Shown in pieces: positions 12,565 to 30,004 of a stretch of DNA of 32,000 nucleotides (positions within the stretch are counted from its first letter, which is position 1; each line of letters starts with the position of its first letter). The notes below the pieces were generated by a model. It was not told the origin of the DNA and did not search any database. It was given only the letters and a program-made list of their open reading frames with translations. Where the stretch lies: contig NC_007517.1 of NCBI RefSeq assembly GCF_000012925.1, positions 300,001-332,000 on the forward strand, in the 5' to 3' direction. The stretch is from Geobacter metallireducens GS-15. Its GTDB lineage: Bacteria > Desulfobacterota > Desulfuromonadia > Geobacterales > Geobacteraceae. Position numbers and translations under genes: made by a program.

Positions 12565-12657
12565 TTCCACAGCTCCTTAATCATATGAGTCTCTTGTTGC
12601 TCTTGTCTGAATTGAGCGAATCCTACTTTAGACTGATAATCCTTGAAAGGAAGGAAC

Positions 12658-13446
12658 ATGCCAGTCGCACAGTACGCGATCGGACCACCAACTCGGCCGA
12701 AAAACATTCGACACGATAACGGATTTCTTGATTCTTTCGCTCGGCGGAAGCCGACGGCAAAGGATTATGAGGAGTATGCCCGCTGGATTTCCCGGCTGGA
12801 GGGTGTTGAGGCGATTCAGGGTGTCCCGTTCGTGCCCCACAACAACCTTCCCGACGCCCTCGCCGCGTACCGACATTTCTTGCGAGGGAATGGAAAAGAT
12901 CATCTGTTTTCGTATGAGCGTTTCGTCTCGAGTGATCCGAGCGGTGCGGTGATCCTTTCAAGTGCTGTTCTGGATGCACGGCAGGGAGCCGAACTTCTCT
13001 ATGGCGAGTACTTTAAGGGACAAAGTCCTGTGCTTTTTCAGATGAGCGGCAGTGCAATCCCTGTCGGAAGCATCCGCTATCCGTCATTTCCTTATCCCAA
13101 GACAGAAAACTGGCAAAAAGCCATAGGAGCCCACGTCATCTGGCTAAGTGCGGATGTGGATGTGGAAATCGCAAATGGCGTGCATTCCTTCGTCATGCAG
13201 ATGACCCTCCATGCCGAAGACCGCTACAATTTCAATCCCGGCGCCGCAGACATAGCGAGCGGAATCCCGGACTCGGCGAATGGAATCTTTGAGGTCACCG
13301 GCCTGGCACACCAGTATATGAATACCTCGACGATCAACCGCAGGGTTGAGTGGGTCGGGCTCGGTTCCCCCCAAGGTATCAGTCCAAAACGTCGAAGCAC
13401 GGACTTCACGAGAGAGAAAGCCTGCGGACAATCGGCGCATTCGTAA
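12658..13446 (+). CDS. Hypothetical 262-aa protein; candidate Hcp-linked T6SS effector
   Basis: GAAAGGAAGG lies upstream of the ATG at 12658. There is no signal peptide. It sits directly downstream of hcp and is followed by a signal-peptide protein. I recognise no catalytic motif. Confidence 0.55.
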   Translation: MPVAQYAIGPPTRPKNIRHDNGFLDSFARRKPTAKDYEEYARWISRLEGVEAIQGVPFVPHNNLPDALAAYRHFLRGNGKDHLFSYERFVSSDPSGAVILSSAVLDARQGAELLYGEYFKGQSPVLFQMSGSAIPVGSIRYPSFPYPKTENWQKAIGAHVIWLSADVDVEIANGVHSFVMQMTLHAEDRYNFNPGAADIASGIPDSANGIFEVTGLAHQYMNTSTINRRVEWVGLGSPQGISPKRRSTDFTREKACGQSAHS

Positions 13447-13474
13447 CAGACTGTGACACCGTAGAGGAAACTGC

Positions 13475-13954
13475 ATGAGTGTTAGAGGATTTGTACATTG
13501 TTGTGTGGCCTTGGCGGTGTTGATCGCCGGGCTTGCCTGCGTCAGCTGCACTGAGGGCCAAGTGCCCAGGAGGAGTGCTGCCATGAGGACTGATGTTGCC
13601 GGGCTATCGAAATTGATAGCTCTTCCGTTCCCGCCGAAAGCCGCTTGGTGGAGGATTGTCGAGAGAGAAGGCTCCGGGGCGATGGGACCAGCGGACTGGG
13701 AACTCATGGCAGTCGTGCAGTTTTCATCTCAGGATGTCGAGGCGATAATCAGCAAGTCCGAGAATCAGCGTTCGGACCCTCCGGAGAATATGGCCGCCGG
13801 GTCCCCGGCGATGAGTGAAATTCTGCGCGATCATGGACCCGTCGGAGAGCGACTCTATGGCGCGGACCCCTTTGTAAAATCGCCGCTTCTGGAAGGCTTC
13901 TTTGCTCGGGTAAAGGGGGCGAACAAGTTGCTCATTTACCTGTCGACCTGCTGA
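13475..13954 (+). CDS. Exported 159-aa protein; candidate cognate immunity protein
   Basis: GAGGAAA precedes the ATG. The N-terminus 'MSVRGFVHCCVALAVLIAGLACVSC' looks like a signal or lipoprotein signal. The gene is small and lies immediately after the candidate effector. Confidence 0.5.
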   Translation: MSVRGFVHCCVALAVLIAGLACVSCTEGQVPRRSAAMRTDVAGLSKLIALPFPPKAAWWRIVEREGSGAMGPADWELMAVVQFSSQDVEAIISKSENQRSDPPENMAAGSPAMSEILRDHGPVGERLYGADPFVKSPLLEGFFARVKGANKLLIYLSTC

Positions 13955-13986: not shown

Positions 13987-15339
13987 CCTTAACAGGCCGT
14001 TGAAAAACTCCTTCATTTCCAGGGCAATCCCCTTCAAGGAGATCATTTTAGGCCGATAGTTGCATTGATCTCGCCCTATTCGTTCTTTGAAACTTTGCTT
14101 TTTACCTTGATTTGGCCTTTTCGGGCGGGCTTTGCCACCAAGAGTCGCATTATTCCCCTGATTATGCCGTTTTCGTCCCGAGATTGCGCAGCCGGACCAG
14201 ATTGTATGCCGCAATGGCCATGGTGAAGTACCAGTCGACTTTCGCTATTCCCCGATGCCGGGTCTTGCGGAGATTGCCGACAGTCTTGAGCCAGCCGAAG
14301 GCCTCTTCGATCCGCTTGCGAATCCTCAGGCTGGTTTTGTAGCCTTCGTGGCGGGTAGTCCTGCCATCGATGGCTGAGCGGCGGTTAGCGGTGTTCTGAG
14401 CAATGTGAGGGGTTACCTTGAGTGCTCGCAGATCTTTGACGCACTCTTTGGTGTCGTAGCCCTTGTCGCCGCCCATGGTGATCCGCTTGTTACCGGCGAC
14501 GTCTGCGATCATCTCGACTGCGGTATCCCGCTCAGCGGTACCGGTTGCGTGGGTGATTCTGGCATCGACGATGATCCCGTTGCGGTTCTCCATGAGAGCG
14601 TGCCCGTGGTAACTGAGCTTCGCCTCTTTGCCCGAGCTTCTCCTGGCAATCCGCGCATCCGGATCGGTGGTGGAGGCATGGGTGTCGTTTTTGAGCTTTT
14701 CGCCGTGGAAATCACGCTCCGTGTTACGACCCACTGGAGGCTTTGGTCCATCCTTGGGCCGAAAGCTCTTGATAGAAGCCCACGCCTCGATGAGGGTGCC
14801 GTCAACGCTGAAGTGCTCGTCGGACAACAGCTTTGCCCTTCGGGCCTGCTCAACTACTTTTGCCAAGAGCAGCCGTGCCACGTCGGTATCGATCAACCGC
14901 TCCAGGTTGGTGGAAAACGAGGAGTGGTCCCAGACCTTCTCGTCCAGGGCCAATCCCACAAACCAGCGGAACAGGATGCTGTAGCTGATCTGCTCCACCA
15001 GCAGACGGTTACTCCTGATGGTGTACAGCGCCTGAAGCAGAAGTGCTTTAAGCAACTGCTCAGGAGGAATCGAGGGCCGGCCGGTGTGGGAGTACATGGC
15101 CTCGAATTGCGGGCTGAGCTCTGCAAGGGCCTTATCCACCATCGCCCTGATCGACCGCAAGGGGTGGTCCTTCGGGACGTACGACTCAGGGGAGAGATAA
15201 CAGAACAGAGCTTCGGTTTTTGTCTCGGCGCCGCGCATAACTTTTCTCCTGTAAATTCAGATTGTTACGCGTAAAAATATAGCACAGTTCGCTAACTTAT
15301 TGAATCAAAAAGGTTTAGTTTTTCAACAACCTGTTAAAG
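13987..15339 (-). mobile_element. IS5-family insertion sequence, about 1.35 kb
   Basis: The terminal inverted repeats match at 20 of 23 positions. The left repeat is 'ccttaacaggccgttgaaaaact' (13987-14009). The right repeat is 'agtttttcaacaacctgttaaag' (15317-15339). They enclose a single transposase ORF. The TTAA at 13989-13992 and 15334-15337 could instead be a 4-bp target duplication; TTAA is palindromic, so the two readings cannot be separated here. Confidence 0.8.
14162..15238 (-). CDS. IS5-family DDE transposase
   Basis: 358 aa. The N-terminus 'LFCYLSPESYVPKDHPLRSIRAMVD...GRPSIPPEQLLKALLLQALYTIRSNRLLVEQISYSILFRWFVGL' matches the InsH-type N-terminal domain. The C-terminus contains 'GDKGYD' and 'IEEAFGWLKTVGNLRKTRHRGIAKV', typical of DDE_Tnp_1/IS5 transposases. 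Confidence 0.9.
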   Translation of the reverse strand: MRGAETKTEALFCYLSPESYVPKDHPLRSIRAMVDKALAELSPQFEAMYSHTGRPSIPPEQLLKALLLQALYTIRSNRLLVEQISYSILFRWFVGLALDEKVWDHSSFSTNLERLIDTDVARLLLAKVVEQARRAKLLSDEHFSVDGTLIEAWASIKSFRPKDGPKPPVGRNTERDFHGEKLKNDTHASTTDPDARIARRSSGKEAKLSYHGHALMENRNGIIVDARITHATGTAERDTAVEMIADVAGNKRITMGGDKGYDTKECVKDLRALKVTPHIAQNTANRRSAIDGRTTRHEGYKTSLRIRKRIEEAFGWLKTVGNLRKTRHRGIAKVDWYFTMAIAAYNLVRLRNLGTKTA

Positions 15340-15399: not shown

Positions 15400-15610
15400 A
15401 ATATTACCTTTCGTCGAGAAAATAGAAAGAATTAGCGTTAAAAGTCGGAGTAGTTAGGGGCATTGCCAGGCATGAGACAAGAAATAAGACAAGGTCAGAA
15501 CCCTTTGGTTTAAATAAATCGATCAATTCAATGCTTGGAGACGGGTAGGGTGGTCCAAGAGTTTAACCTGTATGAGTAATAGCCGGAATACGCGATACTC
15601 TGGGGGTCAC

Positions 15611-16501
15611 ATGAGATTTATAGGCAATCTAATAACGGTTATCAGTGTTTTATTTTTGGCAACAACGTCTTTTGGCGCTGACATCAGCGAATCGGACGTG
15701 AAAATATTCCTGAACGACTGGCTGGCCGCTCAGAACAAAGGTTCATATCCTGACTATGCCGCTCTCTATTCAGAGAGTTTTGTAGGCATTAAGCGATCAG
15801 GGAAAAGTATGCGCAAGTTTGACCATGATTCCTGGCTTAAAGATAGAAAAACGATGTTCAAGAAAAAAATGTTGGTTGCAGCAAATTCCCCGGAAATCAC
15901 GATTTCCGGAACGACAGCATTGGTAAAGTTTGAGCAGACGTGGGAATCAGGCACTTATAAAGACAAAGGCTATAAAGTGCTTGATTTGTCATTGGAGGAC
16001 GAAAAGCTAAAAATAGTTCGGGAAGAGATGCTGTTTTCAATAGTAGATACTAAATTTTCAAGTGCGTTCACTAGGTTTAATAAAGATTGTAAGAATAAAT
16101 TTAGCGACATTGAAGAGGGTCAAGACATGCCAATTATATGTAATGGTCCTTATAAATACAAAATAGAGATTAACTATAGCGCCTGTTGTGAGTATGTCCA
16201 GGTTTCAGATAATAAAAATTTTGTTTTGGATTTACCGGCTCAAATTATTTCTACTGTCACAAATAGAGTGTTGGAGTGGAGATTGGCAAACGGGAAACCG
16301 TTTGCAGTTATATTGAAATTGGATAAATACAAGGGAGACCTAGCGCTTGATGCAAAAAAAGTCAAAGAAGTATTGTTGATTAAAGGGCTTAAAAAATTCG
16401 AAGACATTAATTACGAGGTTGACATAAAGGGGCAATCAAATCCCAACCTAGAAGCTAGGAGTTTAGCAGATCAGAGTTACATGCGATTGTTACAAAAATA
16501 G
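15611..16501 (+). CDS. Secreted protein with an NTF2/SnoaL-like N-terminal domain; candidate immunity protein
   Basis: AT-rich gene. The signal peptide 'MRFIGNLITVISVLFLATTSFGA' begins at the ATG at 15611; an alternative ATG lies at 15572. 'IFLNDWLAAQNKGSYPDYAALYSESF...TALVKFEQTWESG' resembles the NTF2-like/DUF4440 fold pattern, judged by eye. Confidence 0.5.
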   Translation: MRFIGNLITVISVLFLATTSFGADISESDVKIFLNDWLAAQNKGSYPDYAALYSESFVGIKRSGKSMRKFDHDSWLKDRKTMFKKKMLVAANSPEITISGTTALVKFEQTWESGTYKDKGYKVLDLSLEDEKLKIVREEMLFSIVDTKFSSAFTRFNKDCKNKFSDIEEGQDMPIICNGPYKYKIEINYSACCEYVQVSDNKNFVLDLPAQIISTVTNRVLEWRLANGKPFAVILKLDKYKGDLALDAKKVKEVLLIKGLKKFEDINYEVDIKGQSNPNLEARSLADQSYMRLLQK

Positions 16502-16523: not shown

Positions 16524-17402
16524 ATGTATAGAGAAAAATCCAAGTATTCCAAGCTTGAAGGCCCTCTTTCTAATGTCAACTTAAATCTAACCAGCGCAAG
16601 AAATCAAATTTTATTTAGTATACTCGGTAAACCAAGAATTGATGGGATGTACGGAGAGAAAGATGGGCCGCTAAACAACCCTCAATTAGAAAAATTAATG
16701 GTGAGAGGCGTTGACGTCGGGCCATTCAAGGTCAATGGACTTGGTCTTGCGGTTGAAAGCCTAAAAACTGTAATGGCTGATATTAGTAAACAACACAAAG
16801 ACATTTATGACAGATTGAGCCAAGAAGGAATGCTTGTTGTACGCTACCAAAGGCCGACGGCAAAAAAACCAATTGGTTGTCCGAATAGGCCTATAAGCAA
16901 CCACTCATGGGGCACAGCAATAGACCTTAAGATTGATGGTTTGCTTGATGGTCGAGGTGATAATAAAAGTCAGCATGCGTTGAATGTAATAGCTCCGATT
17001 TTCAATAAGTACAAATGGTACTGGGGTGGAACATTTCCGACAGAAGACTCCATGCACTTCGAAGTCAGCAAAGAAAAGCTCCTCGAATGGCACAATGCCG
17101 GCTTGTTAGGACCGATTTCAAAACGCCTGCCAGAGGCCAAAATCCCCGAGACAACAAGGCCAGCAAGCACAAGCTCTTCTTCACGCCATCGTTCGATGTT
17201 TGATTGGTTGCAGAAGGGCGACAGGGGGCCAAAAGTAGTTCAACTGCAGAAAGCCTTAAAGTCCCGTGGCTACAACCTCAAATCCGACGGAGTTTTCGGG
17301 AAGAAAACAGAAACAGCTCTTCAGGACTTTCAACGCAAACAAGGGCTCCCCGACAATGGTATTGTCGGCCCCAAAGCAGCTGCCTATCTGTTGTTTTTCT
17401 GA
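16524..17402 (+). CDS. LAS-type zinc peptidase (M15 family) fused to a C-terminal PG_binding_1 domain; candidate T6SS cell-wall effector
   Basis: GGGAGA RBS. The zinc ligand motifs are 'SNHSWGTAIDL' (His127/Asp134) and 'WYWGG...EDSMHFE' (His178). The C-terminus, 'GDRGPKVVQLQKALKSRGYNLKSDGVFGKKTETALQDFQRKQGLPDNGIVGPKAAAYL', is a typical peptidoglycan-binding repeat. There is no signal peptide, and the gene lies immediately upstream of vgrG. Confidence 0.75.
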   Translation: MYREKSKYSKLEGPLSNVNLNLTSARNQILFSILGKPRIDGMYGEKDGPLNNPQLEKLMVRGVDVGPFKVNGLGLAVESLKTVMADISKQHKDIYDRLSQEGMLVVRYQRPTAKKPIGCPNRPISNHSWGTAIDLKIDGLLDGRGDNKSQHALNVIAPIFNKYKWYWGGTFPTEDSMHFEVSKEKLLEWHNAGLLGPISKRLPEAKIPETTRPASTSSSSRHRSMFDWLQKGDRGPKVVQLQKALKSRGYNLKSDGVFGKKTETALQDFQRKQGLPDNGIVGPKAAAYLLFF

Positions 17403-17491: not shown

Positions 17492-19621
17492 GTGGACATA
17501 CTCAACTTATTCAACAATTCTTCAAGTGCGACATTTCTGTTCGAGGTTTCCGGTTCTGCAGCCGATATGTCAGTCGTGAGTTTTACCGCTAACGAGTGGA
17601 TGTCCTTGCCATACTCGGTAAGCGTTGCCTTTGCCACTCCATACGGAATTGAATCCTTCGACGACATAATCGGTAGCGAAGCCCTGCTGACAATTATCAA
17701 CAAAGACTTGCTTGCCGGAGGAGAGGATCGCTACTTTCACGGGATTGTCAGACGACTTGAGCGTATTGGCTCAAGTAGCAACAATTATTGCCTCTATGAA
17801 GCCGAGATCGTTCCGGCTGTTTTTCAGCTCTCCCTGCGCAAAAACTCCAGAATTTTCCAGAACACTATGACCCAGGACATCGTCAAACAGCTTCTGGAGG
17901 AAAGTGGTATCACCTCGGACAGATACCGCTTTGCCCTCCAAAACAAGGAGCGGTTGCGGAAATTTTGCGTTCAATACAGGGAGACGGATCTCGATTTTGT
18001 AACTCGACTTCTCGAAGAAGAAGGGATGTTTTACTTTTTCGAGCATTATTCCGATAAGCATGTTCTTGTTATAAGTGACAGCAGTGTTGTCCACGTTCCA
18101 ATCAACGGTAATCCTTCGATTACCTTCAACTCAAACGGCGGCATGGTTGCTGAGACAGAAAGCATCTATGGCTTTACCTCGTCCCAAAGGATGACATCAG
18201 AGGTATTCGTTCATCGGAACTTTAATTTCAAGAATCCTTCAGTTGACATGACCGCGAAAGCATCCGACTCGCAGGAGTCAAAACGGGAAATTTATGAGTA
18301 TCCCGCTCTCCATGTTACGCAAGAGAGGGGTAGCGCACTTGCCAGAGCCCACAGGGAAGGACTCAAGACAATGCAGAAGCAGGGTCATGGCCAGAGTTCG
18401 TCCTGTCGACTGACGCCAGGGTACAACTTTGCTCTCATTGGCCACGATTCAGCGAGCCTGAACATTGAATATCTCATTGTGGACGTTTCTCATTCGGGCA
18501 CTCAACCCCAGTCGCTCGAGGAGATGTCCCAAGGGCCTTTCTCGTACGGCAACAGTTTTACTGTCATTCCGGCAACAACCCCGTTCCGCCCCACTGCCAC
18601 TCGACAAAAGCCCATAGTAAAAGGGATTCAGACCGCTATCGTGGTTGGTCCCAAGGGCGAAGAGATCTACGCCGATGAGTATGGTCGGATAAAGGTTCAG
18701 TTCCATTGGGACAGGGAAGGCCGCCGTGACGAGAAGAGTTCCTGCTGGCTCCGCATAGGGCAGACTTGGAGTGGAAACGGTTGGGGCATGATTAACATCC
18801 CCCGGATTGGAGACGAGGTACTGGTCGACTTTATCGATGGAGATCCGGATCGTCCCATTATCGTCGGCAGCGTCAACAACGCCGAATCTCCCGCACTCTT
18901 TTCCCTCCCCGCCAACAAAACCCAAAGCGGCATCCGTACCCGCAGCTATCCCAACGGCGGCCGCGACAACTACCACGAACTTCGCTTCGAAGACAAAAAG
19001 GGTAGCGAGGAGATCTACCTTCAGAGTGAGAAGGACTGGAACATCCTGGTTAAGAACGACAAGACCCAGAATGTTGAACACGACGAGGCTCTACATGTGG
19101 CAAACAACCGGCTGAAGACCGTCGGAGTTGACCAGATGGTGCAGGTGGGAGCCAACCACACCGAAATCATCGGTGCCAATAAGAGTATTTCCGTCGGCTC
19201 AAACAAGACCGAGACGGTGGGGCTCAACTCTGCGGAAACGGTTGGGCTTGCCAAGGAGCTGACCATCGGCGGACTTTATCAGGTCAGCGTCGGTGGGGTC
19301 ATGAACGAGACCGTCATCGGCGCCAAGGCCGAGGAAGTGGGGGTGACCAAGGCGGTGCTGGTCGGCGCTCACATGACCGAGAAGGTGGCCGGGAACCGCT
19401 CGCTCACCGTGGGGCAGAACCTCTCGGCAACGGTCAGCCAGAACACCACCGTGAAGGCCAAGGCGATAGTTCTGGAAGCCGATGACGAGATCATCTTCAA
19501 GACGGGCAGCTCTACCATCTCCCTGAAATCCAGCGGCGAGATTGTCGTTACGGGAGCGACCATAACCGAGAAAGCCAGCGGTGAAATCGTTATAAAGGGT
19601 GCCAGGACTTCGGTGAATTGA
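17492..19621 (+). CDS. vgrG: T6SS spike protein VgrG (TssI)
   Basis: GTG start preceded by CGGAGG. 709 aa. It has a gp27-like N-terminus ('VVSFTANEWMSLPYSVSVAF...YFHGIV'). The gp5 OB region is 'GRIKVQFHWDREG...SCWLRIGQTWSGNGWGMINIPRIGDEVLVDFIDGDPDRPIIVGSV'. A C-terminal beta-helix repeat region follows. Confidence 0.93.
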   Translation: MDILNLFNNSSSATFLFEVSGSAADMSVVSFTANEWMSLPYSVSVAFATPYGIESFDDIIGSEALLTIINKDLLAGGEDRYFHGIVRRLERIGSSSNNYCLYEAEIVPAVFQLSLRKNSRIFQNTMTQDIVKQLLEESGITSDRYRFALQNKERLRKFCVQYRETDLDFVTRLLEEEGMFYFFEHYSDKHVLVISDSSVVHVPINGNPSITFNSNGGMVAETESIYGFTSSQRMTSEVFVHRNFNFKNPSVDMTAKASDSQESKREIYEYPALHVTQERGSALARAHREGLKTMQKQGHGQSSSCRLTPGYNFALIGHDSASLNIEYLIVDVSHSGTQPQSLEEMSQGPFSYGNSFTVIPATTPFRPTATRQKPIVKGIQTAIVVGPKGEEIYADEYGRIKVQFHWDREGRRDEKSSCWLRIGQTWSGNGWGMINIPRIGDEVLVDFIDGDPDRPIIVGSVNNAESPALFSLPANKTQSGIRTRSYPNGGRDNYHELRFEDKKGSEEIYLQSEKDWNILVKNDKTQNVEHDEALHVANNRLKTVGVDQMVQVGANHTEIIGANKSISVGSNKTETVGLNSAETVGLAKELTIGGLYQVSVGGVMNETVIGAKAEEVGVTKAVLVGAHMTEKVAGNRSLTVGQNLSATVSQNTTVKAKAIVLEADDEIIFKTGSSTISLKSSGEIVVTGATITEKASGEIVIKGARTSVN

Positions 19622-19622
19622 A

Positions 19623-20759
19623 ATGGCGTCCCAGTCCCGCAACCAACCAGACAAAACGGTTACGGATCGTGTCGTCATAACCGGCATTGGAACTGTAACC
19701 TCCCTTGGCTGCTCCCAATGGAGCACAGCCCTCGCATTGCGTTTCAGGAAAAGCTCCTGGTGCGAGCACGAAACGGTGCTCGTGGCCGACGATCCGTACG
19801 GTGCCGTACTTCGTGGGGCAACTATCAGTCGCATCCCGGAAGAAATCATCTCTCCTGAACTGGACGGCGCCGAGCGAGCCGAGGCTCTATTTCATCCTGC
19901 ATTGAAAGAGTGCATGGCCGGGCTTTCAATCGCCGAGCAAAAACGACTTGTCTGCCGGATTGATAATTTTATCGATTATGAGCAGCATCTTTTCCCTTCT
20001 CTCTTGCAGGAGGCATTCCCCGGCCTCTCCCTTGAGCATGGCCAGAAGCCGATCGAGCTTGGCCGCTGCTCGCTTTTTGAACGGATCATCCAGGCCGGAG
20101 GTGAGCTTTTGGCGGGAAATGCTGAGCGTATTCTGGTCGGATGTGTCGATTCCCTCTGCGCTACTTCCTGGCTCATGTCAGTTTGTGATGAGGATGTGTT
20201 GAAAGACTCATTGACTCCCGAAGGGATCATTGCCGGAGAAGCGGCGGGAGCTGTTCTACTTGAACGGGAAGCCGCCGCGCGGCGGCGCAATGCGCCGGTT
20301 CTGGCCATTCTTTCGTCATGGGGACGGGGGACGGAGCCCAATCTGTGGCACGGTCCCATTCCCTCTACCGGGCGGGGACTCACCGACGCATTCCTTGAAG
20401 CGATTTCTCCTCACGGGGATGGAGGAAAAGGTGTCGTAACGGTCATCGCCGACCTTAACGGTGACCGGCACCGTGCCCTTGACTGGGCCTACACCGAGGG
20501 GCGGATTTTTATCGATGGTGATCGGGAGCCGGAACTGCGGCATCCCGCTTTCATCGCCGGGGATTGCGGCAAGGCCACGGGAGCGCTTCTCCTTGCCGAC
20601 GCCTTGGGGCGTTTCGCCTTCCATCCAGGGTTTCGGGGGACCCTTGCCCTCAGCACCTCCGATGAATCGGGCGCCAGACGGGTCATCTGCCTGGAGCACG
20701 GTGACCACGAAGAACGGAAGGGCTTTATTGAACAGCTCCGTGCTCAACTTGCCGGTTAA
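19623..20759 (+). CDS. Beta-ketoacyl-synthase-like (thiolase-fold) protein with an apparently divergent active site
   Basis: The ATG is 1 nt after the vgrG stop. The N-terminus 'DRVVITGIGTVTSLG' is KAS I/II-like. 'GRCSLFERIIQAGGELLAGNAERILVGCVDS' aligns by eye to the Cys-nucleophile region of FabF, placing it at Cys149. 'EGIIAGEAAGAVLLEREAAARRRNAPVLA' matches the 'DGFv.GEGAG.lvLE' segment. The positions expected to hold the two catalytic His read 'ADLNGD' and 'AGDCGKATG'. Confidence 0.7.
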   Translation: MASQSRNQPDKTVTDRVVITGIGTVTSLGCSQWSTALALRFRKSSWCEHETVLVADDPYGAVLRGATISRIPEEIISPELDGAERAEALFHPALKECMAGLSIAEQKRLVCRIDNFIDYEQHLFPSLLQEAFPGLSLEHGQKPIELGRCSLFERIIQAGGELLAGNAERILVGCVDSLCATSWLMSVCDEDVLKDSLTPEGIIAGEAAGAVLLEREAAARRRNAPVLAILSSWGRGTEPNLWHGPIPSTGRGLTDAFLEAISPHGDGGKGVVTVIADLNGDRHRALDWAYTEGRIFIDGDREPELRHPAFIAGDCGKATGALLLADALGRFAFHPGFRGTLALSTSDESGARRVICLEHGDHEERKGFIEQLRAQLAG

Positions 20760-20789: not shown

Positions 20790-21503
20790 ATGTCGGCAAC
20801 CGTAATCGTCAATGGTCAGACCGTCGTCCACAAAGACAGCGGGGGCGTGCTCACCACTGGCCCCGATGTCTGCCTTACCCCCATGGGGCCTTCGGTAGTG
20901 CCGATTCCCTACACCAATATCGCGGTTTCCGCCGATACCAGCCAGGGGAGTACCAGCGTTGCCATGGACAGCAACCCCATCATGCTCAAGGGGTCGGTTT
21001 TCTCCAAAAGTACCGGCGACGAACCGGGGAAGGTCGGCGGTGTTTCCTCCGGGATTACCAAAGGGAAGGCCAAGTTTGTCAACTATTCCAGTGATGTCTT
21101 TGCCGATGGGAAGCCGGTCTGCCGACGGCTTGACCCCATGGTGAGCAACCTCTCGGCTGCGGGAAACACCCCACCCGCGCCACTGCAGCAGGGAAATGCG
21201 AGGGCACGGGGCAAGCAGGCGCAAGGCCATCTCTTGTCGGTCGCCTTGGTGTTTGAACACCCCGATGTGGTCACGGGCCGGACGACCCAGCCGCTCGTCG
21301 ATCTCAAATACTCATTGAACGGCCCCAAAACGATCACTGTAGCTAAGAGCGAACCCTACACTGGAATCCAGGAATACGTCCCGCAGGGTGGGTACGCCCT
21401 TGAATTTGACCGCAATGACCTCAAAGAGAAACTCACGGAAAGGTCAGTCAGTGAAAAACAATCATCCAAAGGGGCTGCGTTCAGGAATCACAAGACGAGC
21501 TGA
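20790..21503 (+). CDS. DUF4150 (PAAR-like) spike-tip protein with a ~100-aa C-terminal extension
   Basis: AAGGAG RBS. The sequence 'VIVNGQTVVHKDSGGVLTTGPDVCLTPMGPSVVPIPYTNIAVSADTSQGSTSVAMDSNPIMLKGSVFSKSTGDEPGKVGGVSSG...SSDVFADGKPVCRRLDPMVSN' fits the DUF4150/Tox-PAAR-like pattern. Confidence 0.8.
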   Translation: MSATVIVNGQTVVHKDSGGVLTTGPDVCLTPMGPSVVPIPYTNIAVSADTSQGSTSVAMDSNPIMLKGSVFSKSTGDEPGKVGGVSSGITKGKAKFVNYSSDVFADGKPVCRRLDPMVSNLSAAGNTPPAPLQQGNARARGKQAQGHLLSVALVFEHPDVVTGRTTQPLVDLKYSLNGPKTITVAKSEPYTGIQEYVPQGGYALEFDRNDLKEKLTERSVSEKQSSKGAAFRNHKTS

Positions 21504-21536
21504 TTCGGACACAATTGTTTGAACCAAGAGGGATCC

Positions 21537-22541
21537 ATGAAAACTGTATTCAGAAGAGCACTGCTTGTCATAACTGCAACTATACTAACCGTTTCCTTTA
21601 CCGCGTGCAAAGGGAGCGCTGGAAACGGATCAGATCACAAAGAACCCGGGAAAGGAGCACAAAAGGGGATGAATACCTATAACATCGGACGGTTCTCCAT
21701 TGATGTGCCGACAGAAATGAAAGAGGCGGGGCGAACCCATGAGTTCCGGTACGCGGAAATCGAGGAGTTTCTCTGGCCGAAGAACGTAGACAGGGAAGAG
21801 GCGCGCAAGGAAGCCTGGGCAAGGAGAATTGCGGAAATAAACAGCAATAGACCCCCGCGTGGAATAAAGAAAATCATTGTTGAAACCAAGGAAAGTCTGT
21901 CGGTAGGCAAGTGGTCCAAAGGAGTCTTGTATTACGGGAATGACATGAGTAGCAAAGACGGTTTCTGGATGATAATGGCAGATTATGGCCAAGTTGGCGC
22001 AATATTTATAATCAAAGGACTAATTGAATACGAGGAACCAATGTTTGATGACTTGCTCGAAATTGCCAGAAACTACGAGCCAATGAAACAAGATAAAGTC
22101 GATTCTTTTCATACTGCTTATGGAAACATAACACTTCCCTACCTCGAACAGGAATCCAGCTATGTTCGATTTGAAGGGCATCCTTTGGATTTGATGCTAG
22201 AAATAGAAATGACTGAAACCAATAATGTCGAAGAGTCAGGCCCTGTTGAGCGACTTGCTGCTGCAATATCAACAAACTTTGCACCGACGGTGGATGTAAA
22301 AAAAATTCGTGCCCGTAAGAAAAATGTGGCTGGACTTGAAGGGGAAGAGCTTGTCGTGAGGTTGACTGACGGCGGAGAATCGGAGTTACATTTCGGATGG
22401 GAATATGCCGGAAAACAAGACTCCGGGGAATACCCTCTGATTCAAATCGAGATGGAAAGTCCCGATGGGAGGGTTGAAGAGAAGTTGAAAGTTTGGGATG
22501 CGATTCTTGGCTCCATGAAATCGCTTTACAAAGGTAAGTAA
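21537..22541 (+). CDS. Lipoprotein; candidate immunity protein (Tli-type) for the downstream lipase
   Basis: GAGGG lies before the ATG at 21537. The signal 'MKTVFRRALLVITATILTVSFTAC' carries a lipobox. The gene is AT-rich, and its stop abuts the lipase start codon (TAAATG). Confidence 0.6.
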   Translation: MKTVFRRALLVITATILTVSFTACKGSAGNGSDHKEPGKGAQKGMNTYNIGRFSIDVPTEMKEAGRTHEFRYAEIEEFLWPKNVDREEARKEAWARRIAEINSNRPPRGIKKIIVETKESLSVGKWSKGVLYYGNDMSSKDGFWMIMADYGQVGAIFIIKGLIEYEEPMFDDLLEIARNYEPMKQDKVDSFHTAYGNITLPYLEQESSYVRFEGHPLDLMLEIEMTETNNVEESGPVERLAAAISTNFAPTVDVKKIRARKKNVAGLEGEELVVRLTDGGESELHFGWEYAGKQDSGEYPLIQIEMESPDGRVEEKLKVWDAILGSMKSLYKGK

Positions 22542-24599
22542 ATGTCAACAACCCTTAAGGTCAATCATGAGGAGTTAGTGCGACCGATTTCAGAGCTGAA
22601 AACTGATGCACGGCAGCGCATTGCTTTTGATCGCAAGGTCATTCCTATTATTTTCATCCCTGGCATCATGGGGAGCAGGCTAAAAAATCGTTTCAACAAA
22701 AGGATATGGGACCCTGACAGACCTGGTTGGATGCTTTGGAAATATGGAATATTCAAGGCTGCCACGGCTCAAACAAAAAAGGCCATGCTTGTTGGAAAGG
22801 AATTCTCTCCTGAATATCTGAGAGTAATCAATGACGATGGCAGACATAACAAAAAGTATTTTGCACACCAGTACGACACCCATCGGGCCGACCGCGGTTG
22901 GGGAGGGGTGTTGTGGAGCAGTTACGGGACGATCATCAAGGAACTGCAGACGCGCCAGTGGGACCGGACCGTAAACCTTTTTGCCGAATTTCCGGTTCAT
23001 GCTTTTGGCTACAACTGGACTGCTTCCAACCGGCTGGCCGGTGAAAGGCTCGCCGGCTACATCGATGCCGTGATAACCAAATATCGCGGCATGGGGCGTC
23101 AGTGTGAAAAAGTAATCCTCGTCACCCACTCCATGGGGGGCCTTGTAGCTCGGGCCGCCTGCAAACTAAGCGGCGCCGACAATAAGGTTCTCGGTGTCAT
23201 TCACGGCGTGCAGCCGGCCAACGGTTCACCGGCCGGCTATTGGCGGATGAAGGGGGGCTTCGAGCGGCCCCACACGATTCCCGAAACCGATCCGATGCAC
23301 TGGTTGAAAACGCCCAAGCGCGCTGCAGCTCACAAATGGAACACCCTGGTTACCAAGGGAGTTGAGTTCGCCCCTGGAATCAGTTTCGGCAAGGGCAATA
23401 TAACCGCATGGGTGCTCGGCACGGATGGGCGGGAAGTGACGGCACTACTCGGCAATATGCCCGGAGGCTTGCAGTTGCTGCCCAACAAGCGTTATCGAGA
23501 TAATCACGGCTGTGCCCAGTGGCTGGTGCTCAGAGACGAATCGGGAAAGCGTCGGAATCTCCCGAAGTCGGACCCATACAAGGAAATTTACCGAGCGAAA
23601 GATGTCTATTGGCGTCTTGTCAATCCGGAGTGGCTAAATCCTGGAGAGAAAGTCAAATCAAACAAAAAATACCGCAGTAAGACTTCCTGGATTAATTATG
23701 GTGAATATCTAACAGAGGCCGAATCCTTCCACGACGCCCTTGGCGGCAAGGTCCATCCCAACACCTACCAGTTTTACTCCACCGGAATAGCCAGCCCTGA
23801 TCGGGTGGTATTCACCCGGATGCGGGATACCCTGAGAAGCAAGGGAAAACGAATCATCGACATGGTTAAGGGAGATCTGCTCGGCAAGGGCGTCGGTGCG
23901 GCGGTCGATGCGGCCAGGGGAGAACTGACCAAGCCTGTGGCCGGCGCCGCCAAAACAACGCTGGCAAAGCCGTTTGCCGGTGGATCCTTGACAGAGTACG
24001 TACTGCACCCGAGCAAACTGGTGACCGCCGCGAAGGGACTTGCCGGCGCGGCAAAACAGGTGCCGGGCGCCATGGCCGAAGCGGCGAAGGGCCTTCCCAA
24101 CGCATTGCCCCGGATAGCCTCCGGCATGCCGAAAGCCATCGGCATCAATGCCGCCAAGAAGGCTGCCACTACCGCTATCGGTTTGGTGGTTCGTGATGAT
24201 AAGCGGTTCATCGATCGCGGCGGTTACCGCGACAAAGTCGATGAATCCGATCTCCTGGTGTTCAAGGAAAACGGTTCTCCGGCGGAGGTTGCATTCCTCA
24301 TTACCCTGGAAACCCCGGATGGTGCCGGCGACGGAACCGTCCCCGAGTCATCGGCGAAAGCACTCAAACTTGGAGCCAACAGGACGTTTGCCATCGGTGA
24401 CGTGGATGGCAATGAGGGGAAATTTGTCGAAAAGAAGGCCCCCCGCACAAAGCCCCAAATCCCGCCCGACTTCGATGAAGGGTGGTTTGACCGTGGACAT
24501 GAACCAATCTACAAGACACGAAGCGCCACCCACATAACCGTTACCGCCATTGAAAACATGGTGCGAGAGTTGGGCCGGAAAGCGCTTGGCCTCCACTAA
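22542..24599 (+). CDS. Alpha/beta-hydrolase lipase/phospholipase; candidate Tle-type T6SS effector
   Basis: 685 aa with no signal peptide. An oxyanion-type start 'IIFIPGIMGSRL' is followed by the nucleophile elbow 'VILVTHSMGGLVAR' (GxSxG, Ser197). 'GAGDGTVPESS' (Asp597) and 'FDRGHEPIY' (His653) sit at positions typical of the acid and base of lipase class-2/PGAP1-like enzymes. Confidence 0.75.
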   Translation: MSTTLKVNHEELVRPISELKTDARQRIAFDRKVIPIIFIPGIMGSRLKNRFNKRIWDPDRPGWMLWKYGIFKAATAQTKKAMLVGKEFSPEYLRVINDDGRHNKKYFAHQYDTHRADRGWGGVLWSSYGTIIKELQTRQWDRTVNLFAEFPVHAFGYNWTASNRLAGERLAGYIDAVITKYRGMGRQCEKVILVTHSMGGLVARAACKLSGADNKVLGVIHGVQPANGSPAGYWRMKGGFERPHTIPETDPMHWLKTPKRAAAHKWNTLVTKGVEFAPGISFGKGNITAWVLGTDGREVTALLGNMPGGLQLLPNKRYRDNHGCAQWLVLRDESGKRRNLPKSDPYKEIYRAKDVYWRLVNPEWLNPGEKVKSNKKYRSKTSWINYGEYLTEAESFHDALGGKVHPNTYQFYSTGIASPDRVVFTRMRDTLRSKGKRIIDMVKGDLLGKGVGAAVDAARGELTKPVAGAAKTTLAKPFAGGSLTEYVLHPSKLVTAAKGLAGAAKQVPGAMAEAAKGLPNALPRIASGMPKAIGINAAKKAATTAIGLVVRDDKRFIDRGGYRDKVDESDLLVFKENGSPAEVAFLITLETPDGAGDGTVPESSAKALKLGANRTFAIGDVDGNEGKFVEKKAPRTKPQIPPDFDEGWFDRGHEPIYKTRSATHITVTAIENMVRELGRKALGLH

Positions 24600-24647: not shown

Positions 24648-25661
24648 ATGGACCTTCTCAATTCCACCCCCCTCATCGCCTCCCACAACATCCTTACCGA
24701 CCGCAACGGCGCTGAAACCCTCCTCGTCGTCGTCAAGGGAACCTGGCGCATCGGGAGGAATGGGGCACTCTCGATAGCTGGCGAGCAGGTGCCCATTCAA
24801 CTTGAGCCACGCTACCTCGGCGATCCCGCGGCATCGAGCCTCATCTACGATACGGACCTGATTCTGGAAAAGCCGGGCACCGACTGCATCCTTCTCGGTT
24901 ACGCCTGGGCGCCTAAGGTCGGAGTTGGCTCTGTGGACGTCACCTTCGGGGTGGGGCCATTGCGAAAGACTGTGCGGGTCTTCGGTGAGCGGATCTGGAT
25001 GAAGTGCCTGGGAATGGTCTCGATGTCAAAACCGGCGCCGTTCGAGAAGATTCCCCTCGTCTGGGAGCGGGCCTTTGGAGGGTCGGACACAAGCTGGCCC
25101 GAGCCGAAGGAGCACGAGTTCTGCTTGGAGAATCCGGTGGGGACGGGCCTTCTGGCACGAAAGACGAAGCTGGAGATCGACGGCTTGCGGCTGCCTAATC
25201 TGGAGGACCCGGCCCATCTCATCAAAAAGCCAACGGATCGTCCCAAACCGGTGGGGTTCGGACCGATCCCGCCCCATTGGTTCCCGCGGGCTGGTTATGC
25301 CGGCACCTATGACGACCAGTGGCGAAAGTATGTAAGCCCTCTGCCGCCTGACGACCTGGACCCGCGCTTCTATTTGGCCGCTGCGCCCGGTCTGACAACG
25401 GCCCGGCATCTTGCGGGCACGGAGCAGGTGCTTGTGGAAAACGCTTCCCGGGCCGGAAGGCTTCAGTTTCAGCTGCCTGGAGGAACGCCGAGCGTCTCGG
25501 TGCAGATCAGAGCGGCGGTCCTGGAACTGGAGATGCGGCTGGGCACGGTTATCGTCGAGCCGGATGAGGAACGGCTTGTCCTCGTCTGGCGCGGCCATCA
25601 GAACGTTCACGGAAAAATCCATGACGTGTACGGTGTCCGTGTCGGTTATGGTGGCCTGTAA
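24648..25661 (+). CDS. DUF2169-family T6SS adaptor/chaperone
   Basis: The sequence 'LLVVVKGTWRIGRNGALSIAGEQVPIQLEPRYLGDPAASSLIYDTDLILEKPGTDCILLGYAWAP' matches the DUF2169 N-terminal pattern. It co-occurs with a DUF4150 gene in the same operon. Confidence 0.8.
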   Translation: MDLLNSTPLIASHNILTDRNGAETLLVVVKGTWRIGRNGALSIAGEQVPIQLEPRYLGDPAASSLIYDTDLILEKPGTDCILLGYAWAPKVGVGSVDVTFGVGPLRKTVRVFGERIWMKCLGMVSMSKPAPFEKIPLVWERAFGGSDTSWPEPKEHEFCLENPVGTGLLARKTKLEIDGLRLPNLEDPAHLIKKPTDRPKPVGFGPIPPHWFPRAGYAGTYDDQWRKYVSPLPPDDLDPRFYLAAAPGLTTARHLAGTEQVLVENASRAGRLQFQLPGGTPSVSVQIRAAVLELEMRLGTVIVEPDEERLVLVWRGHQNVHGKIHDVYGVRVGYGGL

Positions 25662-25863: not shown

Positions 25864-26002
25864 GTGTCCAAAATCCTGGGTCGGAACCACAACCGGGATA
25901 AAAGGAGATCATGCGCCAGAAAAGAAAAATTCCCAGTACCGATCGATTGAGCGAAAGCAGAACGAGAACATTTTTTGAGATCAGGGGATGAAAGGAGTCA
26001 AA

Positions 26003-28753
26003 ATGAAGATTGTCAGTAAGACGTCAGCGCAGTTCCTTTTTGTCGCGGCTCTGGGAGCAGGCGCTCTGACAGCGTTTCAGCTGAAGGGGACGGAGGCGCT
26101 GGCCTATCCCGCGTACTTCACGACCAATTGTGCCGGCTGCCATGCGGCACCGGTGGCCGCTACCTGCAATGGATGCCACCACCACGGCCCCGTGTCGCTG
26201 AAAGGCGCCACCAACAAAACGTCCTATGCCCCCGGAGAGTCCGTATCGGTAACCATCAGCGGCGGCAGCCAGAGCGGCTGGGTCAGGGCCATCCTGTATG
26301 ACCAGAACAATCAGCAGGTGGCCATATCGAGCGGCAACGATAGCGGCATGGGGCACTCGACAACGTTCCCTGCGACCCTGAGTGCGCCGGCGCCGACTGT
26401 CCCGGGAACGTACACCTGGAAAGCTGCCTGGTTCGGCAACAGTTATGATTCTACCAATCCGACCGCGAGCGCCCATGGCGAGGTGTCGGTGAATACCAAT
26501 TCGTTCACCGTTGTGGCTCCGGTCGACACCACCGTCCCGGTCGTGAGCGCCTTTACCCTTCCGGCCACTTCTACGAGCCTCACCGTTGCGGTCAGCTCCT
26601 TCACCGCCACCGACAACGTGGGCGTCACCGGCTACCTGATCACCACGAGCGCCACCGCGCCCGCAGCAAGCGCCACCGGGTGGAGCGCCACCGCCCCCAC
26701 GAGCGTCACCGCTGTTGCCGGCAGCAACACCTTCTACGCCTGGGCTAAGGACGCAGCAGGGAACGTCTCCCTCGCCAAGAGCGCCAGCGTGACGGTCACC
26801 CTTCCTGACACCGTCGTCCCGGTCGTGAGCGCCTTCACGCTTCCGGCCACCGCCACGAGCCTTACCGTTGCGGTCAGCTCCTTCACCGCCACCGACAACG
26901 TGGGCGTCACCGGCTACCTGATCACCAAGAGCGCCACCGCGCCCGCAGCAAGCGCCACCGGGTGGACGGCCACCGCCCCCACGAGCGTGACCGCCGTGGC
27001 CGGCAGCAACACCTTTTACGCCTGGGCCAAGGACGCAGCGGGCAACGTCTCGCTCGCCAAGAGCGCCAGCGTCACGGTCACGCTCCCTGACGCCACCGTC
27101 CCGGTCGTGAGCGCCTTCACCCTGCCTGCGACCTCCACGAGCCTCACCGTTGCGGTCAGCTCCTTCACCGCCACCGACAACGTGGGCGTCACCGGCTACC
27201 TGATCACCAAGAGCGCCACCGCGCCCGCAGCAAGCGCCACCGGGTGGACGGCCACCGCCCCCACGAGCGTGACCGCCGTGGCCGGCAGCAACACCTTTTA
27301 CGCCTGGGCCAAGGACGCAGCAGGGAACGTCTCCCTCGCCAAGAGCGCCAGCGTGACGGTCACCCTTCCTGATGCTACCGCCCCGGTGGTGAGCGCCTTT
27401 ACCCTTCCGGCCACTTCTACGAGCCTCACCGTTGCGGTCAGCTCCTTCACCGCCACCGACAACGTCGGCGTCACCGGCTACCTGATCACCAAGAGCGCCA
27501 CCGCGCCCGCAGCAAGCGCCACCGGGTGGACGGCCACCGCCCCCACGAGCGTGACCGCCGTAGCCGGCAATAACACCTTCTACGCCTGGGCCAAGGACGC
27601 AGCAGGGAACGTCTCCCTCGCCAAGAGCGCCAGCGTGACGGTAACGCTCCCTGACACCACCGCCCCGGTGGTGAGCGCCTTTACCCTTCCGGCCACTTCT
27701 ACGAGCCTCACCGTTGCGGTCAGCTCCTTTACCGCCACCGACAACGTCGGCGTCACCGGTTACCTGATCACCACCAGCGCCACGGCACCGGCGGCATCCG
27801 CCACCGGCTGGAGCGCCACTGCCCCCACGAGCGTGACCGCCGTGGCCGGCAATAACACCTTCTACGCCTGGGCCAAGGATGCAGCAGGCAACGTCTCCCT
27901 CTCCAAGAGCGCCAGCGTGACGGTTACCGTCGCCCCTGCGGACCTCACCCTGACCATATCCGCCCTGGCCAACGGTTCGTACACCAACAAGGGAACCTTG
28001 AACATCAGCGGCGTCGCCATTGATGCCGCCGGCATCAAGTCCGTAACCGTCAACGGGCAGACCGTTACCGTCAATCCGGATGGTTCCTTCAGCTATGCAC
28101 TGTCACTCCAGTCCGGCGCCAACACCGTAACGGTCGTCGCCACCGACAATGCCGGCACCCAGAAGACCGATATCCGCACCATAACCTATGACCCGGCCGC
28201 GCCGGTTCTGACGGTCTCCGCGCCGGCCGACAACAGCACCACCACCCAGTCGTTCATTACCTTGAACGGCACCATCAGCGAAACCTCCACCGTCAGCGTC
28301 AGCGTCAACGGCAGCGCCCCGCAAACCGCTGCCATCAGCGGCAACTCGTATACCGCCACCGTTTATCTGGTGAAAGGTGTGAACACCATCAGCATCAGCG
28401 CCACCGACCTGGCCGGCAACATCACAACCGCCAAGAGGACGGTAACCTACAGCGGCGTGAGCAATAACCTCGCACTTGCGGTTACCTTCCCCAATCAGGA
28501 CATTACCACCAAGTATCCGTACCTGGTCCTCAAGGGGACGGTTGTCGACAACGAGAAAGTGGCCGTCAAGATTATCATGGACGGCAAGACCTACATCCCT
28601 GTAGTTGATGATGGCGTATTCATGCAGCGTCTCGTTTTCACCACTCCCAAGCTGTATGCCATTACCGTCATTGCCACGGATGCGGCAGGCAACAAGAGCA
28701 CGGTCACTCGTAACGTGATTTACCGTCCCGGGTATGACCACGATGATGATTAA
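26003..28753 (+). CDS. Secreted repeat protein with two N-terminal CxxCH motifs, five tandem Ig-like repeats and further Ig-like domains
   Basis: AGGAG lies 6 nt before the ATG at 26003; the track start at 25988 lies inside the RBS. The signal peptide is 'MKIVSKTSAQFLFVAALGAGALTAFQ'. The heme-type motifs are 'NCAGCH' and 'CNGCHH'. Five 94-aa repeats follow, then 'NISGVAIDAAGIKSVTVNGQTVTVNPDGSFSY'-type domains. Confidence 0.8.
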   Translation: MKIVSKTSAQFLFVAALGAGALTAFQLKGTEALAYPAYFTTNCAGCHAAPVAATCNGCHHHGPVSLKGATNKTSYAPGESVSVTISGGSQSGWVRAILYDQNNQQVAISSGNDSGMGHSTTFPATLSAPAPTVPGTYTWKAAWFGNSYDSTNPTASAHGEVSVNTNSFTVVAPVDTTVPVVSAFTLPATSTSLTVAVSSFTATDNVGVTGYLITTSATAPAASATGWSATAPTSVTAVAGSNTFYAWAKDAAGNVSLAKSASVTVTLPDTVVPVVSAFTLPATATSLTVAVSSFTATDNVGVTGYLITKSATAPAASATGWTATAPTSVTAVAGSNTFYAWAKDAAGNVSLAKSASVTVTLPDATVPVVSAFTLPATSTSLTVAVSSFTATDNVGVTGYLITKSATAPAASATGWTATAPTSVTAVAGSNTFYAWAKDAAGNVSLAKSASVTVTLPDATAPVVSAFTLPATSTSLTVAVSSFTATDNVGVTGYLITKSATAPAASATGWTATAPTSVTAVAGNNTFYAWAKDAAGNVSLAKSASVTVTLPDTTAPVVSAFTLPATSTSLTVAVSSFTATDNVGVTGYLITTSATAPAASATGWSATAPTSVTAVAGNNTFYAWAKDAAGNVSLSKSASVTVTVAPADLTLTISALANGSYTNKGTLNISGVAIDAAGIKSVTVNGQTVTVNPDGSFSYALSLQSGANTVTVVATDNAGTQKTDIRTITYDPAAPVLTVSAPADNSTTTQSFITLNGTISETSTVSVSVNGSAPQTAAISGNSYTATVYLVKGVNTISISATDLAGNITTAKRTVTYSGVSNNLALAVTFPNQDITTKYPYLVLKGTVVDNEKVAVKIIMDGKTYIPVVDDGVFMQRLVFTTPKLYAITVIATDAAGNKSTVTRNVIYRPGYDHDDD
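26534..27943 (+). repeat. Five in-frame tandem repeats of 282 bp (94 aa), near-identical at the DNA level
   Basis: Units start at 26534, 26816, 27098, 27380 and 27662. Each begins 'g(t/c)cccggt(c/g)gtgagcgcc' and encodes '(V/A)PVVSAFTLPAT(S/A)TSLTVAVSSFTATDNVGVTGYLIT(T/K)SATAPAASATGW(S/T)ATAPTSVTAVAG(S/N)NTFYAWAKDAAGNVSL(A/S)KSASVTVT'. Confidence 0.9.
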
Positions 28754-28809: not shown

Positions 28810-28860
28810 CTTTCGCTGGCATGACGGATAAGCGACACGCCGGGGCGTCCTCATGCCGCG

Positions 28861-29847: not shown

Positions 29848-29941
29848 ATCGTCCTCCATTTCGTCTGAAGCACAACAAGTTTATCCCCTGTTGCCAAGCT
29901 GTCAAACAGGACCTTTAGGCGGAAAACATCAGGTAACACAA

Positions 29942-29968
29942 AGGCCGCCCGGAACACCCGGACGGCCT
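29942..29968 (-). terminator. Probable intrinsic terminator of nrfA
   Basis: The minus strand reads 'aggccgtccggg tgtt cccgggcggcct' followed by 'ttgtgtt'. It lies ~40 nt downstream of the nrfA stop. Confidence 0.55.
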
Positions 29969-30004
29969 GTGCTTTCTTAGCCCATGATCGGCGTCAGCAG
30001 CGGA

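Follow-up and report, generated by a model that had tools for sequence, protein, structure and literature searches.

In a description attributed to Pissaridou et al. (2018), a thiolase-like PRK06147 protein is a constant part of the vgrG1b-type clusters of Pseudomonas aeruginosa, which are given as containing an evolved VgrG, an oligonucleotide/oligosaccharide-binding (OB)-fold protein, a DUF2169 protein, the thiolase-like protein, a PAAR toxin, an immunity protein, as well as a HEAT protein. Liu et al. (2020; PMC7714669) proposed PRK06147 proteins as a fourth adaptor class in type VI secretion systems (T6SS) and reported 407 homologues, of which 52% had a PAAR gene after them and only 8 were found in genomes without T6SS or spike genes. 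A PRK06147 protein also appears among the chaperone domains listed in a 2025 review. Further, Monlezun, Earl and Coulthurst (bioRxiv; EMBO J 2026) named the P. aeruginosa family member PA0098 TvpD and predicted it to be a co-chaperone; in their AlphaFold models, which cover PA0096 as well, PA0098 and PA0097 (DUF2169/TvpA) form a groove that shields the DUF4150 PAAR domain of Tse7, and TvpD, together with the DUF6484 protein TvpC, is a hallmark of their "Class II" Tvp systems. The role of DUF2169 proteins as chaperones of DUF4150 PAAR domains is credited, in the citations given for it, to Bondage 2016 and Sachar 2025. Here we describe a member of the PRK06147/TvpD family from Geobacter metallireducens GS-15, encoded in a 32,000-nucleotide stretch of its genome (NC_007517.1, positions 300,001 to 332,000 of the forward strand; referred to as the window, with coordinates counted from its first nucleotide). 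The 378-residue product of the ATG-initiated open reading frame (ORF) at 19623–20759 on the + strand is probably a cytoplasmic, non-catalytic co-chaperone that, together with a DUF2169 protein, would serve a DUF4150 PAAR-like tip protein and that has a ketosynthase (KS) fold without a condensing active site.

The gene directly after vgrG encodes a member of the PRK06147/TvpD family

Pfam and NCBIfam scans of the window ORFs revealed a T6SS cluster on the + strand, in which the KS-like gene directly follows vgrG (TssI, the spike trimer; 17492–19621, +). The 709-residue VgrG protein contains Phage_GPD, Phage_base_V, and Gp5_trimer_C domains (TIGR03361, E = 3.7e-194). The TGA stop codon of vgrG occupies 19619–19621, a single base follows at 19622, and the ATG of the KS-like gene comes next, giving a TGA-A-ATG junction with a 1-nucleotide spacer in the sequence itself (19619–19625, +). 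As the initial annotation had read from the sequence, and as the Pfam matches bear out, the KS-like ORF heads an operon of + strand genes. It is followed by a DUF4150 (PIPY-type)/Tox-PAAR-like tip protein of 237 residues (20790–21503; PF13665, E = 1.5e-37) and by a Tli4-like immunity lipoprotein (21519–22541; PF18426 Tli4_C, E = 4.9e-13) with a signal peptide and the lipobox VSFTAC, the likely start codon of which is the ATG at 21537 and which has 334 residues in public gene calls. Then come a 685-residue Tle4-like (PGAP1-like α/β-hydrolase) phospholipase, the putative cargo effector (22542–24599; PF07819 PGAP1, Abhydrolase_6, and DUF676, with a THSMGG serine motif), and a 337-residue DUF2169 protein of the TvpA/Tap type (24648–25661; PF09937, E = 2.6e-103, domain at residues 21–315). 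An identical KS-like protein with the same neighbors is present on at least 24 public contigs.

The KS-like protein is a genuine PRK06147/TvpD protein. It matches NCBIfam NF004798 (PRK06147, "3-oxoacyl-acyl carrier protein (ACP) synthase") with 387.4 bits (E = 6.5e-116; curated cut-off, 342 bits), and its residues 13–365 align with positions 2–349 of the 349-position profile. For family-wide comparisons, we searched exhaustively with a profile (8570 hits at E ≤ 1e-3) and used 129 full-length representatives, clustered at 50% identity. The window protein carries the family signature residues D277, N279, G280, R284, W288, H307, P308, A309, G313, D314, G316, and A318, each of which is found in at least 90% of these representatives, except H307 (70%). 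Close homologues come from Geobacter and Geobacteraceae, and its identity to most family representatives is ∼25–30%. The initial annotation had placed the protein outside the known T6SS repertoire; this view has to be given up because the protein is a full-length member of a family that was proposed as adaptors in 2020 and whose P. aeruginosa member was named TvpD in 2026.

The comparison with TvpD/PA0098 is close. Both proteins belong to the same NCBIfam family, for which the window protein scores above the cut-off, are thiolase-like, and share the "3-oxoacyl-ACP synthase" annotation, and each gene immediately precedes a DUF4150 gene within an operon that also holds vgrG and a DUF2169 gene. 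The gene order differs: it is vgrG-tvpD-paar-tli-tle-tvpA in the window and vgrG-tvpC-tvpA-tvpD-paar(toxin)-immunity-HEAT in the PA0098 cluster.

We also compared the protein with condensing enzymes. In the scans, no Pfam family, ketoacyl-synt included, matched it at E ≤ 0.01, its family being named by NCBIfam only, and true FabF/FabB models scored below 31 bits (for the FabF model TIGR03150, 24.9 bits against a cut-off of 493.75). In a single-sequence search of the PDB, FabF matched weakly (E ∼6e-5) and at residues 155–260 alone, and alignment of the whole protein with FabF required the profile of the 129 representatives. The AlphaFold2 model, built from an alignment of 27 homologues, had a predicted local distance difference test (pLDDT) value of 88 and a predicted template modeling (TM) score of 0.89. 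Its top Foldseek matches were FabF/β-ketoacyl-ACP synthase (KAS) II, FabB, and type II polyketide synthase (PKS) ketosynthases, with E values from ∼1e-19 (best, 8.5e-20) to 1e-17, TM scores of 0.64–0.74, and sequence identities of 12–18%. The KAS-type N terminus, RVVITGIGTVTSLG, aligns with RIVVTGMGMINSLG of FabF. On the strength of the model, we take the predicted ketosynthase (thiolase) fold to be real. The initial annotation had recognized this fold from the N terminus and core segments and had suggested structure prediction and family hidden Markov model searches as checks; these recovered the KS fold, with Pfam ketoacyl-synt remaining below threshold.

In common with FabF/FabB and with the KS and chain-length factor of type II PKS systems, the window protein has the thiolase fold, an N-terminal "xVVITGxG" strand, a "GxxxGEAAG" loop, and a "VDS/GxES" strand. 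Compared with FabF/FabB, however, it is ∼35 residues shorter and is encoded in a T6SS context rather than a fatty-acid or polyketide context. Indeed, the Pfam and NCBIfam scans detected no ACP, coenzyme A (CoA) ligase, fab, or PKS genes among its neighbors in the window, and all identifiable + strand neighbors between 2290 and 25661 are T6SS core, spike, effector, or accessory genes; the exceptions in this interval are a − strand insertion sequence (IS) transposase gene and a number of ORFs without a family match. We rejected a housekeeping FabF/FabB identity, given the lack of a threshold match to Pfam ketoacyl-synt or to NCBIfam FabF/FabB models, the replacement of the two catalytic His and the Lys (see below), and the T6SS context.

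PRK06147 genes are linked to DUF4150 and DUF2169 genes across phyla

To relate the window locus to those of its relatives, we took one genome per species, which gave 37 loci, and compared them with the window proteins by tblastn. The loci come from Geobacteraceae, Smithella, Planctomycetota, Bacteroidota, Myxococcota, Acidobacteriota, and others. A DUF4150 gene was nearby in 35 of the 37, mostly as the next gene downstream, and DUF2169 and vgrG genes were present in most. The initial annotation had named such a neighborhood survey as a test that could count against a T6SS role; as it turned out, genes for vgrG, DUF4150, and DUF2169 closely accompany the homologues, here as in Liu et al. (2020), which favors a T6SS role. 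The two loci without DUF4150 (L028 and L029) hold divergent myxobacterial PRK06147 members, and we rejected the possibility that these are ordinary FabF genes. In L028, the gene adjoins a TIGR02270 HEAT-repeat gene.

Three arrangements were seen. Type A, that of the window, Geobacter, and Smithella, has the order vgrG-KS-DUF4150-Tli4-lipase-DUF2169. Type B (Planctomycetota, Bacteroidota, Myxococcota, Acidobacteriota, Eisenbacteria, and others) is typically vgrG-(HEAT)-(TvpC-like)-DUF2169-KS-DUF4150, which is also the order of the P. aeruginosa vgrG1b cluster. Type C, complete in L019 and partial in L005, L012, and L020, is vgrG-TvpC-DUF4150-lipase-Tli4-KS-HEAT-DUF2169. In type A loci, the stop-N-ATG junction between vgrG and the KS-like gene (with TGA, TAA, or TAG as the stop codon) was found in all 12 loci with an intact junction, in which the proteins are 40–81% identical. 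Because the one-base spacing is kept despite this divergence, its conservation supports, short of proof, translational coupling of the tvpD-like gene to vgrG.

The DUF4150 protein of the window consists of a PAAR-like domain (residues 21–121), with the PIPY motif in its translation, and a C-terminal extension of ∼116 residues (21153–21503) that has no match in Pfam or NCBIfam. As judged by tblastn, this extension is conserved in loci with a Tle4-like lipase only and not in loci with other cargo. Because it is kept in the lipase-linked loci alone, the extension is a candidate lipase-recruitment domain. The P. aeruginosa Tle4 is described as being linked to a canonical PAAR protein instead.

Two further features of the homologous loci were noted. 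Tandem pairs of lipase and Tli4-like genes, two within one module, occur at L003 (9143–15541) and L020 (2411–7992) and represent effector-immunity duplication. In distant phyla, small ORFs lie between vgrG and the DUF2169 gene (L024, 6430–6966; L032, 6469–6954; L022, 6213–6698; L025, 4577–5197); the C termini of their products resemble the C-terminal β-prism of VgrG, consistent with TvpC/DUF6484 proteins as VgrG mimics.

The survey bears on which component of the module TvpD would contact. Liu et al. (2020) grouped PRK06147 with effector adaptors, with toxins at most two genes downstream, and by extension, the window protein could be an effector-specific adaptor that bridges the Tle4-like lipase, or a toxin in general, to VgrG or the PAAR-like protein. 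The placement of the lipase three genes downstream and the apparent coupling of the tvpD-like gene to vgrG fit such a role. However, the effector varies from locus to locus, with GHH2 and AHH nucleases in Liu et al. (2020), a lipase in the window, and unrelated C termini in type B loci, whereas the DUF4150 domain and DUF2169 are constant and only the effector part, or the region after the PAAR domain, changes. Furthermore, in the published models, PA0098 sits against the PAAR domain and the toxin faces away. Because the PAAR-like domain and DUF2169 are constant and the effector part is variable, the PAAR-like domain is the likelier partner than the toxin, and we regard an effector-specific adaptor as unlikely.

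Fusions to HEAT-repeat proteins provide another hint of a partner. About nine family representatives are PRK06147-TIGR02270 HEAT fusions (P0058, P0062, P0065, P0066, P0068, P0069, P0142, P0154, and P0188), of which a domain scan confirmed P0058, P0065, and P0142, the others being deduced from their length. Among the surveyed loci, PRK06147 and TIGR02270 are fused or adjacent in L028 (6196–7446), L032 (5206–6465), and L019 (9168–10166). Because the genes are fused, we suggest that TvpD and the HEAT protein of vgrG1b-type clusters work together physically, and because such fusions exist, a scaffold role fits the family.

The ketosynthase catalytic residues are replaced by a different conserved motif

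The catalytic residues of Escherichia coli FabF are C163, H303, H340, and K335. We aligned the family profile with solved FabF structures using HMMER and hhalign (the latter with Helicobacter pylori FabF). Both methods place the "NAHGT" loop of FabF over "ADLNGD" in the window protein (DLNG[ED] in the family), with Asn279 in the place of His303, and "GHxLGAAG" over "AGDCGKATG" (family GDxGAA), with Asp314 in the place of His340. In the same alignments, the active-site Lys335 gives way to Ala309, A309 standing opposite FabF Lys336 (Ala in the 8z5e mutant). These replacements are family-wide: 120 of the 129 representatives have N279, 125 have Asp or Glu at 314, 121 have A309, and none of the 129 has a His at either catalytic position.

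Conservation within the family is highest in the former active-site loops. The first, D277-L-N279-G280-[ED]-x-x-R284-x-x-[ED]-W288 (20451–20486, +), replaces the FabF "NAHGT" (His303) loop and reads D277-L-N279-G280-E-x-Y-R284-x-x-E-W288 in the family, with D277 in 124, G280 in all 129, and R284 and W288 in 122 each of the 129 representatives. The second, H307-P308-A309-x-x-x-G313-D314-x-G316-x-A318 (20541–20576, +), replaces the FabF "K…GHxLGAAG" (Lys335, His340) segment and corresponds to H307-P308-A309-…-G313-D314-x-G316-A-A318 in the family (P308, 122/129; G313, 129/129; D314, 114/129 plus 11 with Glu; G316, 127/129). The new motif may form a structural network, serve as an interface, or line a pocket.

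The position of the nucleophile is less clear. Arg148-Cys149 (20064–20069, +) lies at the start of a helix that matches the KS nucleophile elbow in the alignment and the model, with an ambiguous register. In the HMMER alignment, the FabF Cys falls between residues 148 and 149 as an inserted residue; hhalign contradicts this and sets it opposite Ile144 by means of a 4-residue gap. Counting back without gaps from the conserved VDS motif gives Arg148, and the helix of the model begins at residue 147. The profile of the close clade (A1) aligned with the PDB over the C-terminal half only and gave no register for the Cys. From these alignments, Cys149 would lie at or within ∼1 residue of the nucleophile position, a proximity short of proven equivalence. 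Position 149 is Ala in 57, Thr in 23, Cys in 14, and Ser in 10 of the 129 representatives, and position 148 is His in 59, Arg in 29, and Asn in 14. In close-clade relatives with the same operon, residue 149 is Ser, Gly, Ala, or His. Of 13 sequences that share 35% identity or more with the window protein (itself counted), 9 have a Cys at or next to the nucleophile elbow.

Because the Cys is not conserved, whatever the register, and the catalytic residues are lost, the alignments lead us to regard KS-type chemistry as excluded for the PRK06147 family and as very unlikely for its window member. The initial annotation had suggested that only the nucleophile Cys is kept and that both His positions have changed. 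The latter part was right, and the finding that the Cys-His-His triad is not intact favors a T6SS role; the retained nucleophile, being variable in the closest clade and uncertain in register, is weak. Chain-length factors likewise have a KS fold without the catalytic Cys, as do most PRK06147 members, and PRK06147 proteins additionally lack both His residues.

The window protein could still act as an enzyme, either transferring an acyl group through Cys149 or using a new activity at a D277/N279/D314 site, and could thereby modify the PAAR-like protein, the VgrG tip, or the lipase, for example by lipidation. The frequency of the elbow Cys among the closest sequences, the exceptional conservation of the old active-site loops, and the retention of the overall fold, including the GEAAG loop, speak for such an activity. 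However, none of the 129 representatives has either His or the Lys that KS chemistry requires, Cys149 is replaced in close relatives with the same operon and most of the family has Ala or Thr there, genes for ACP, CoA ligase, or fatty-acid synthesis are missing from the window scans, and the conserved polar residues might just as well play a structural part or form a protein interface. Taken together, we consider an enzymatic role quite improbable.

The window protein is a probable co-chaperone of the PAAR-like tip protein

The initial annotation had offered three hypotheses for the protein, namely a repurposed non-catalytic chaperone, an acyl-transferring enzyme, and a delivered toxin, of which the first is the best supported. 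We propose that the TvpD-like protein would be made together with VgrG by way of the stop-N-ATG junction and that it and the DUF2169 protein (TvpA) would bind the PAAR-like protein and shield it until it is seated on the VgrG tip. Such contacts with the PAAR-like protein would be expected by analogy with the AlphaFold models of the P. aeruginosa homologue. The C-terminal extension of the PAAR-like protein, or VgrG, would then carry the Tle4-like lipase, from which the Tli4-like lipoprotein would protect the producer, and the TvpD-like and DUF2169 chaperones would be expected to stay in the cell.

In this respect, PRK06147 proteins resemble the DUF2169 (TvpA/Tap2), DUF1795 (Eag), DUF4123 (Tap-1/TEC), and DUF2875 proteins, which are also small cytoplasmic accessory proteins encoded beside vgrG, PAAR, or effector genes and load cargo on the spike. 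The folds of these classes are unrelated to that of PRK06147, however, and PRK06147 nearly always occurs with DUF2169 and DUF4150, not alone.

Several points weigh against a co-chaperone role. In the literature, the role of TvpD/PRK06147 is a prediction from synteny and AlphaFold models. A Pfam scan of the window found no separate ORF for a DUF6484 TvpC protein, which defines the published Class II pre-complex, and gave one weak match inside VgrG. Consistent with this, four TvpC-like queries from other loci matched only the OB-fold and C-terminal regions of VgrG in the window, and queries from other loci found no TIGR02270 HEAT gene there. Thus, although TvpA (DUF2169 only, without pentapeptide repeats) and TvpD are both present in the window as in Class II Tvp systems, the PAAR/DUF4150 domain of the latter is fused to an effector domain, whereas the window has a 237-residue DUF4150 protein without a recognized toxin domain and a separate 685-residue lipase. 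With tvpD placed right behind vgrG and tvpA closing the operon as well, the window locus does not fit Class II as defined, and its assembly route may differ.

The conserved residues themselves are a further point of this kind, since the polar motif (D277, N279, E/D281, R284, E/D287, W288, H307, and D314) could be a ligand-binding or catalytic site rather than a passive surface, and a Cys occurs near the old nucleophile position in the Geobacter-type clade. The window clade, which often has this Cys, differs here from PA0098. Were this constellation a working ligand or catalytic site joined by the clade-specific Cys, TvpD might load a small molecule or acyl group, covalently or not, onto the PAAR-like tip, VgrG, or the lipase; we give this scheme little credence.

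A precedent for a catalytically dead KS-fold protein in the T6SS is TsmK (AsaB, A1S_1301) of Acinetobacter baumannii, a pseudo-ketosynthase that stabilizes the TssM/TssL membrane complex and is essential for T6SS assembly (PMC10564176). Like the window protein, TsmK is a T6SS accessory protein with a predicted KS-like fold that lacks catalytic residues, and in both cases, a metabolic fold has been co-opted (PMC10564176). The window protein could, by this precedent, be a structural factor for the membrane complex. However, TsmK is reported to be specific to Acinetobacter, to be encoded with the core membrane-complex genes, and to be linked to the absence of TssJ (PMC10564176), whereas PRK06147 is tied to vgrG/DUF4150/DUF2169 modules that are often satellite islands. 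As compared by description only, TsmK is membrane-associated, belongs to the core cluster, and keeps one His and no Cys, whereas the window protein belongs to a spike/effector module and has neither His. A TsmK-like role is therefore highly improbable, and we rejected it on context. We likewise rejected on context, as extremely unlikely, that the KS-like protein is itself a secreted T6SS effector or toxin: its gene does directly follow vgrG, a common position for cargo effectors, but no immunity gene of its own lies beside it (the Tli4-like protein being the partner of the lipase), it has no toxin domain and no delivery marker, its family keeps 25–80% identity and a fixed synteny across phyla, which polymorphic toxins do not, and the literature treats the family as non-secreted accessory proteins.

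Other features of the T6SS cluster

Upstream of vgrG, the + strand of the window carries the T6SS core genes tssL (2290–3000), tssM (3002–6466), tssB (9957–10445), tssC (10458–11936), and hcp (12033–12518). TagF is a post-translational inhibitor of the T6SS, and TssA is a cap protein. Between tssM and tssB, a single 793-residue ORF (6499–8880, +) encodes an N-terminal TagF domain (residues ∼17–133) and a full TssA (∼275–757), a TagF-TssA fusion that looks unusual.

The hcp-vgrG spacing is ∼5 kb in the window, where it holds the IS transposase (14162–15238, −; DUF772 and DDE_Tnp_1), compared with ∼2.4 kb in the closest locus, L001. The shorter gap in L001 suggests that the IS entered the T6SS cluster recently. 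Just upstream of vgrG, and also there on other contigs, is the gene of a 292-residue M15 peptidase with a peptidoglycan-binding domain (16524–17402, +; Peptidase_M15_4 and PG_binding_1), which, judging from its domains, could be a TagX-like peptidoglycan-remodeling accessory enzyme or a cell-wall effector. Directly after the effector module, a 921-residue protein (25988–28753, +) has repeated immunoglobulin-like domains (Glucodextran_B, Big_13, and OmpL47-type) and is probably a surface protein unrelated to the tvpD finding. Seven ORFs of 109–497 residues on the + strand (within 8902–9872, 12643–13954, 15572–16501, and 28821–31477) matched no Pfam or NCBIfam family, with a sub-threshold Cds6_C match for 15572–16501.

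Implications for the TvpD family

Overall, the gene described here is an ordinary new member of the TvpD family in a slightly unusual gene arrangement, the link between PRK06147 and the T6SS having already been published. It adds data points for TvpD: a locus without a TvpC template, a conserved stop-N-ATG tie to vgrG, and a cargo lipase in place of a PAAR-fused nuclease. Across the family, the His, His, and Lys positions of ketosynthases have given way to another conserved polar motif; Liu et al. (2020) and Monlezun et al. (2026) contain no analysis of the catalytic residues and no discussion of lipase cargo or a HEAT partner. These features provide concrete mutants and constructs for studying the mechanism of TvpD.

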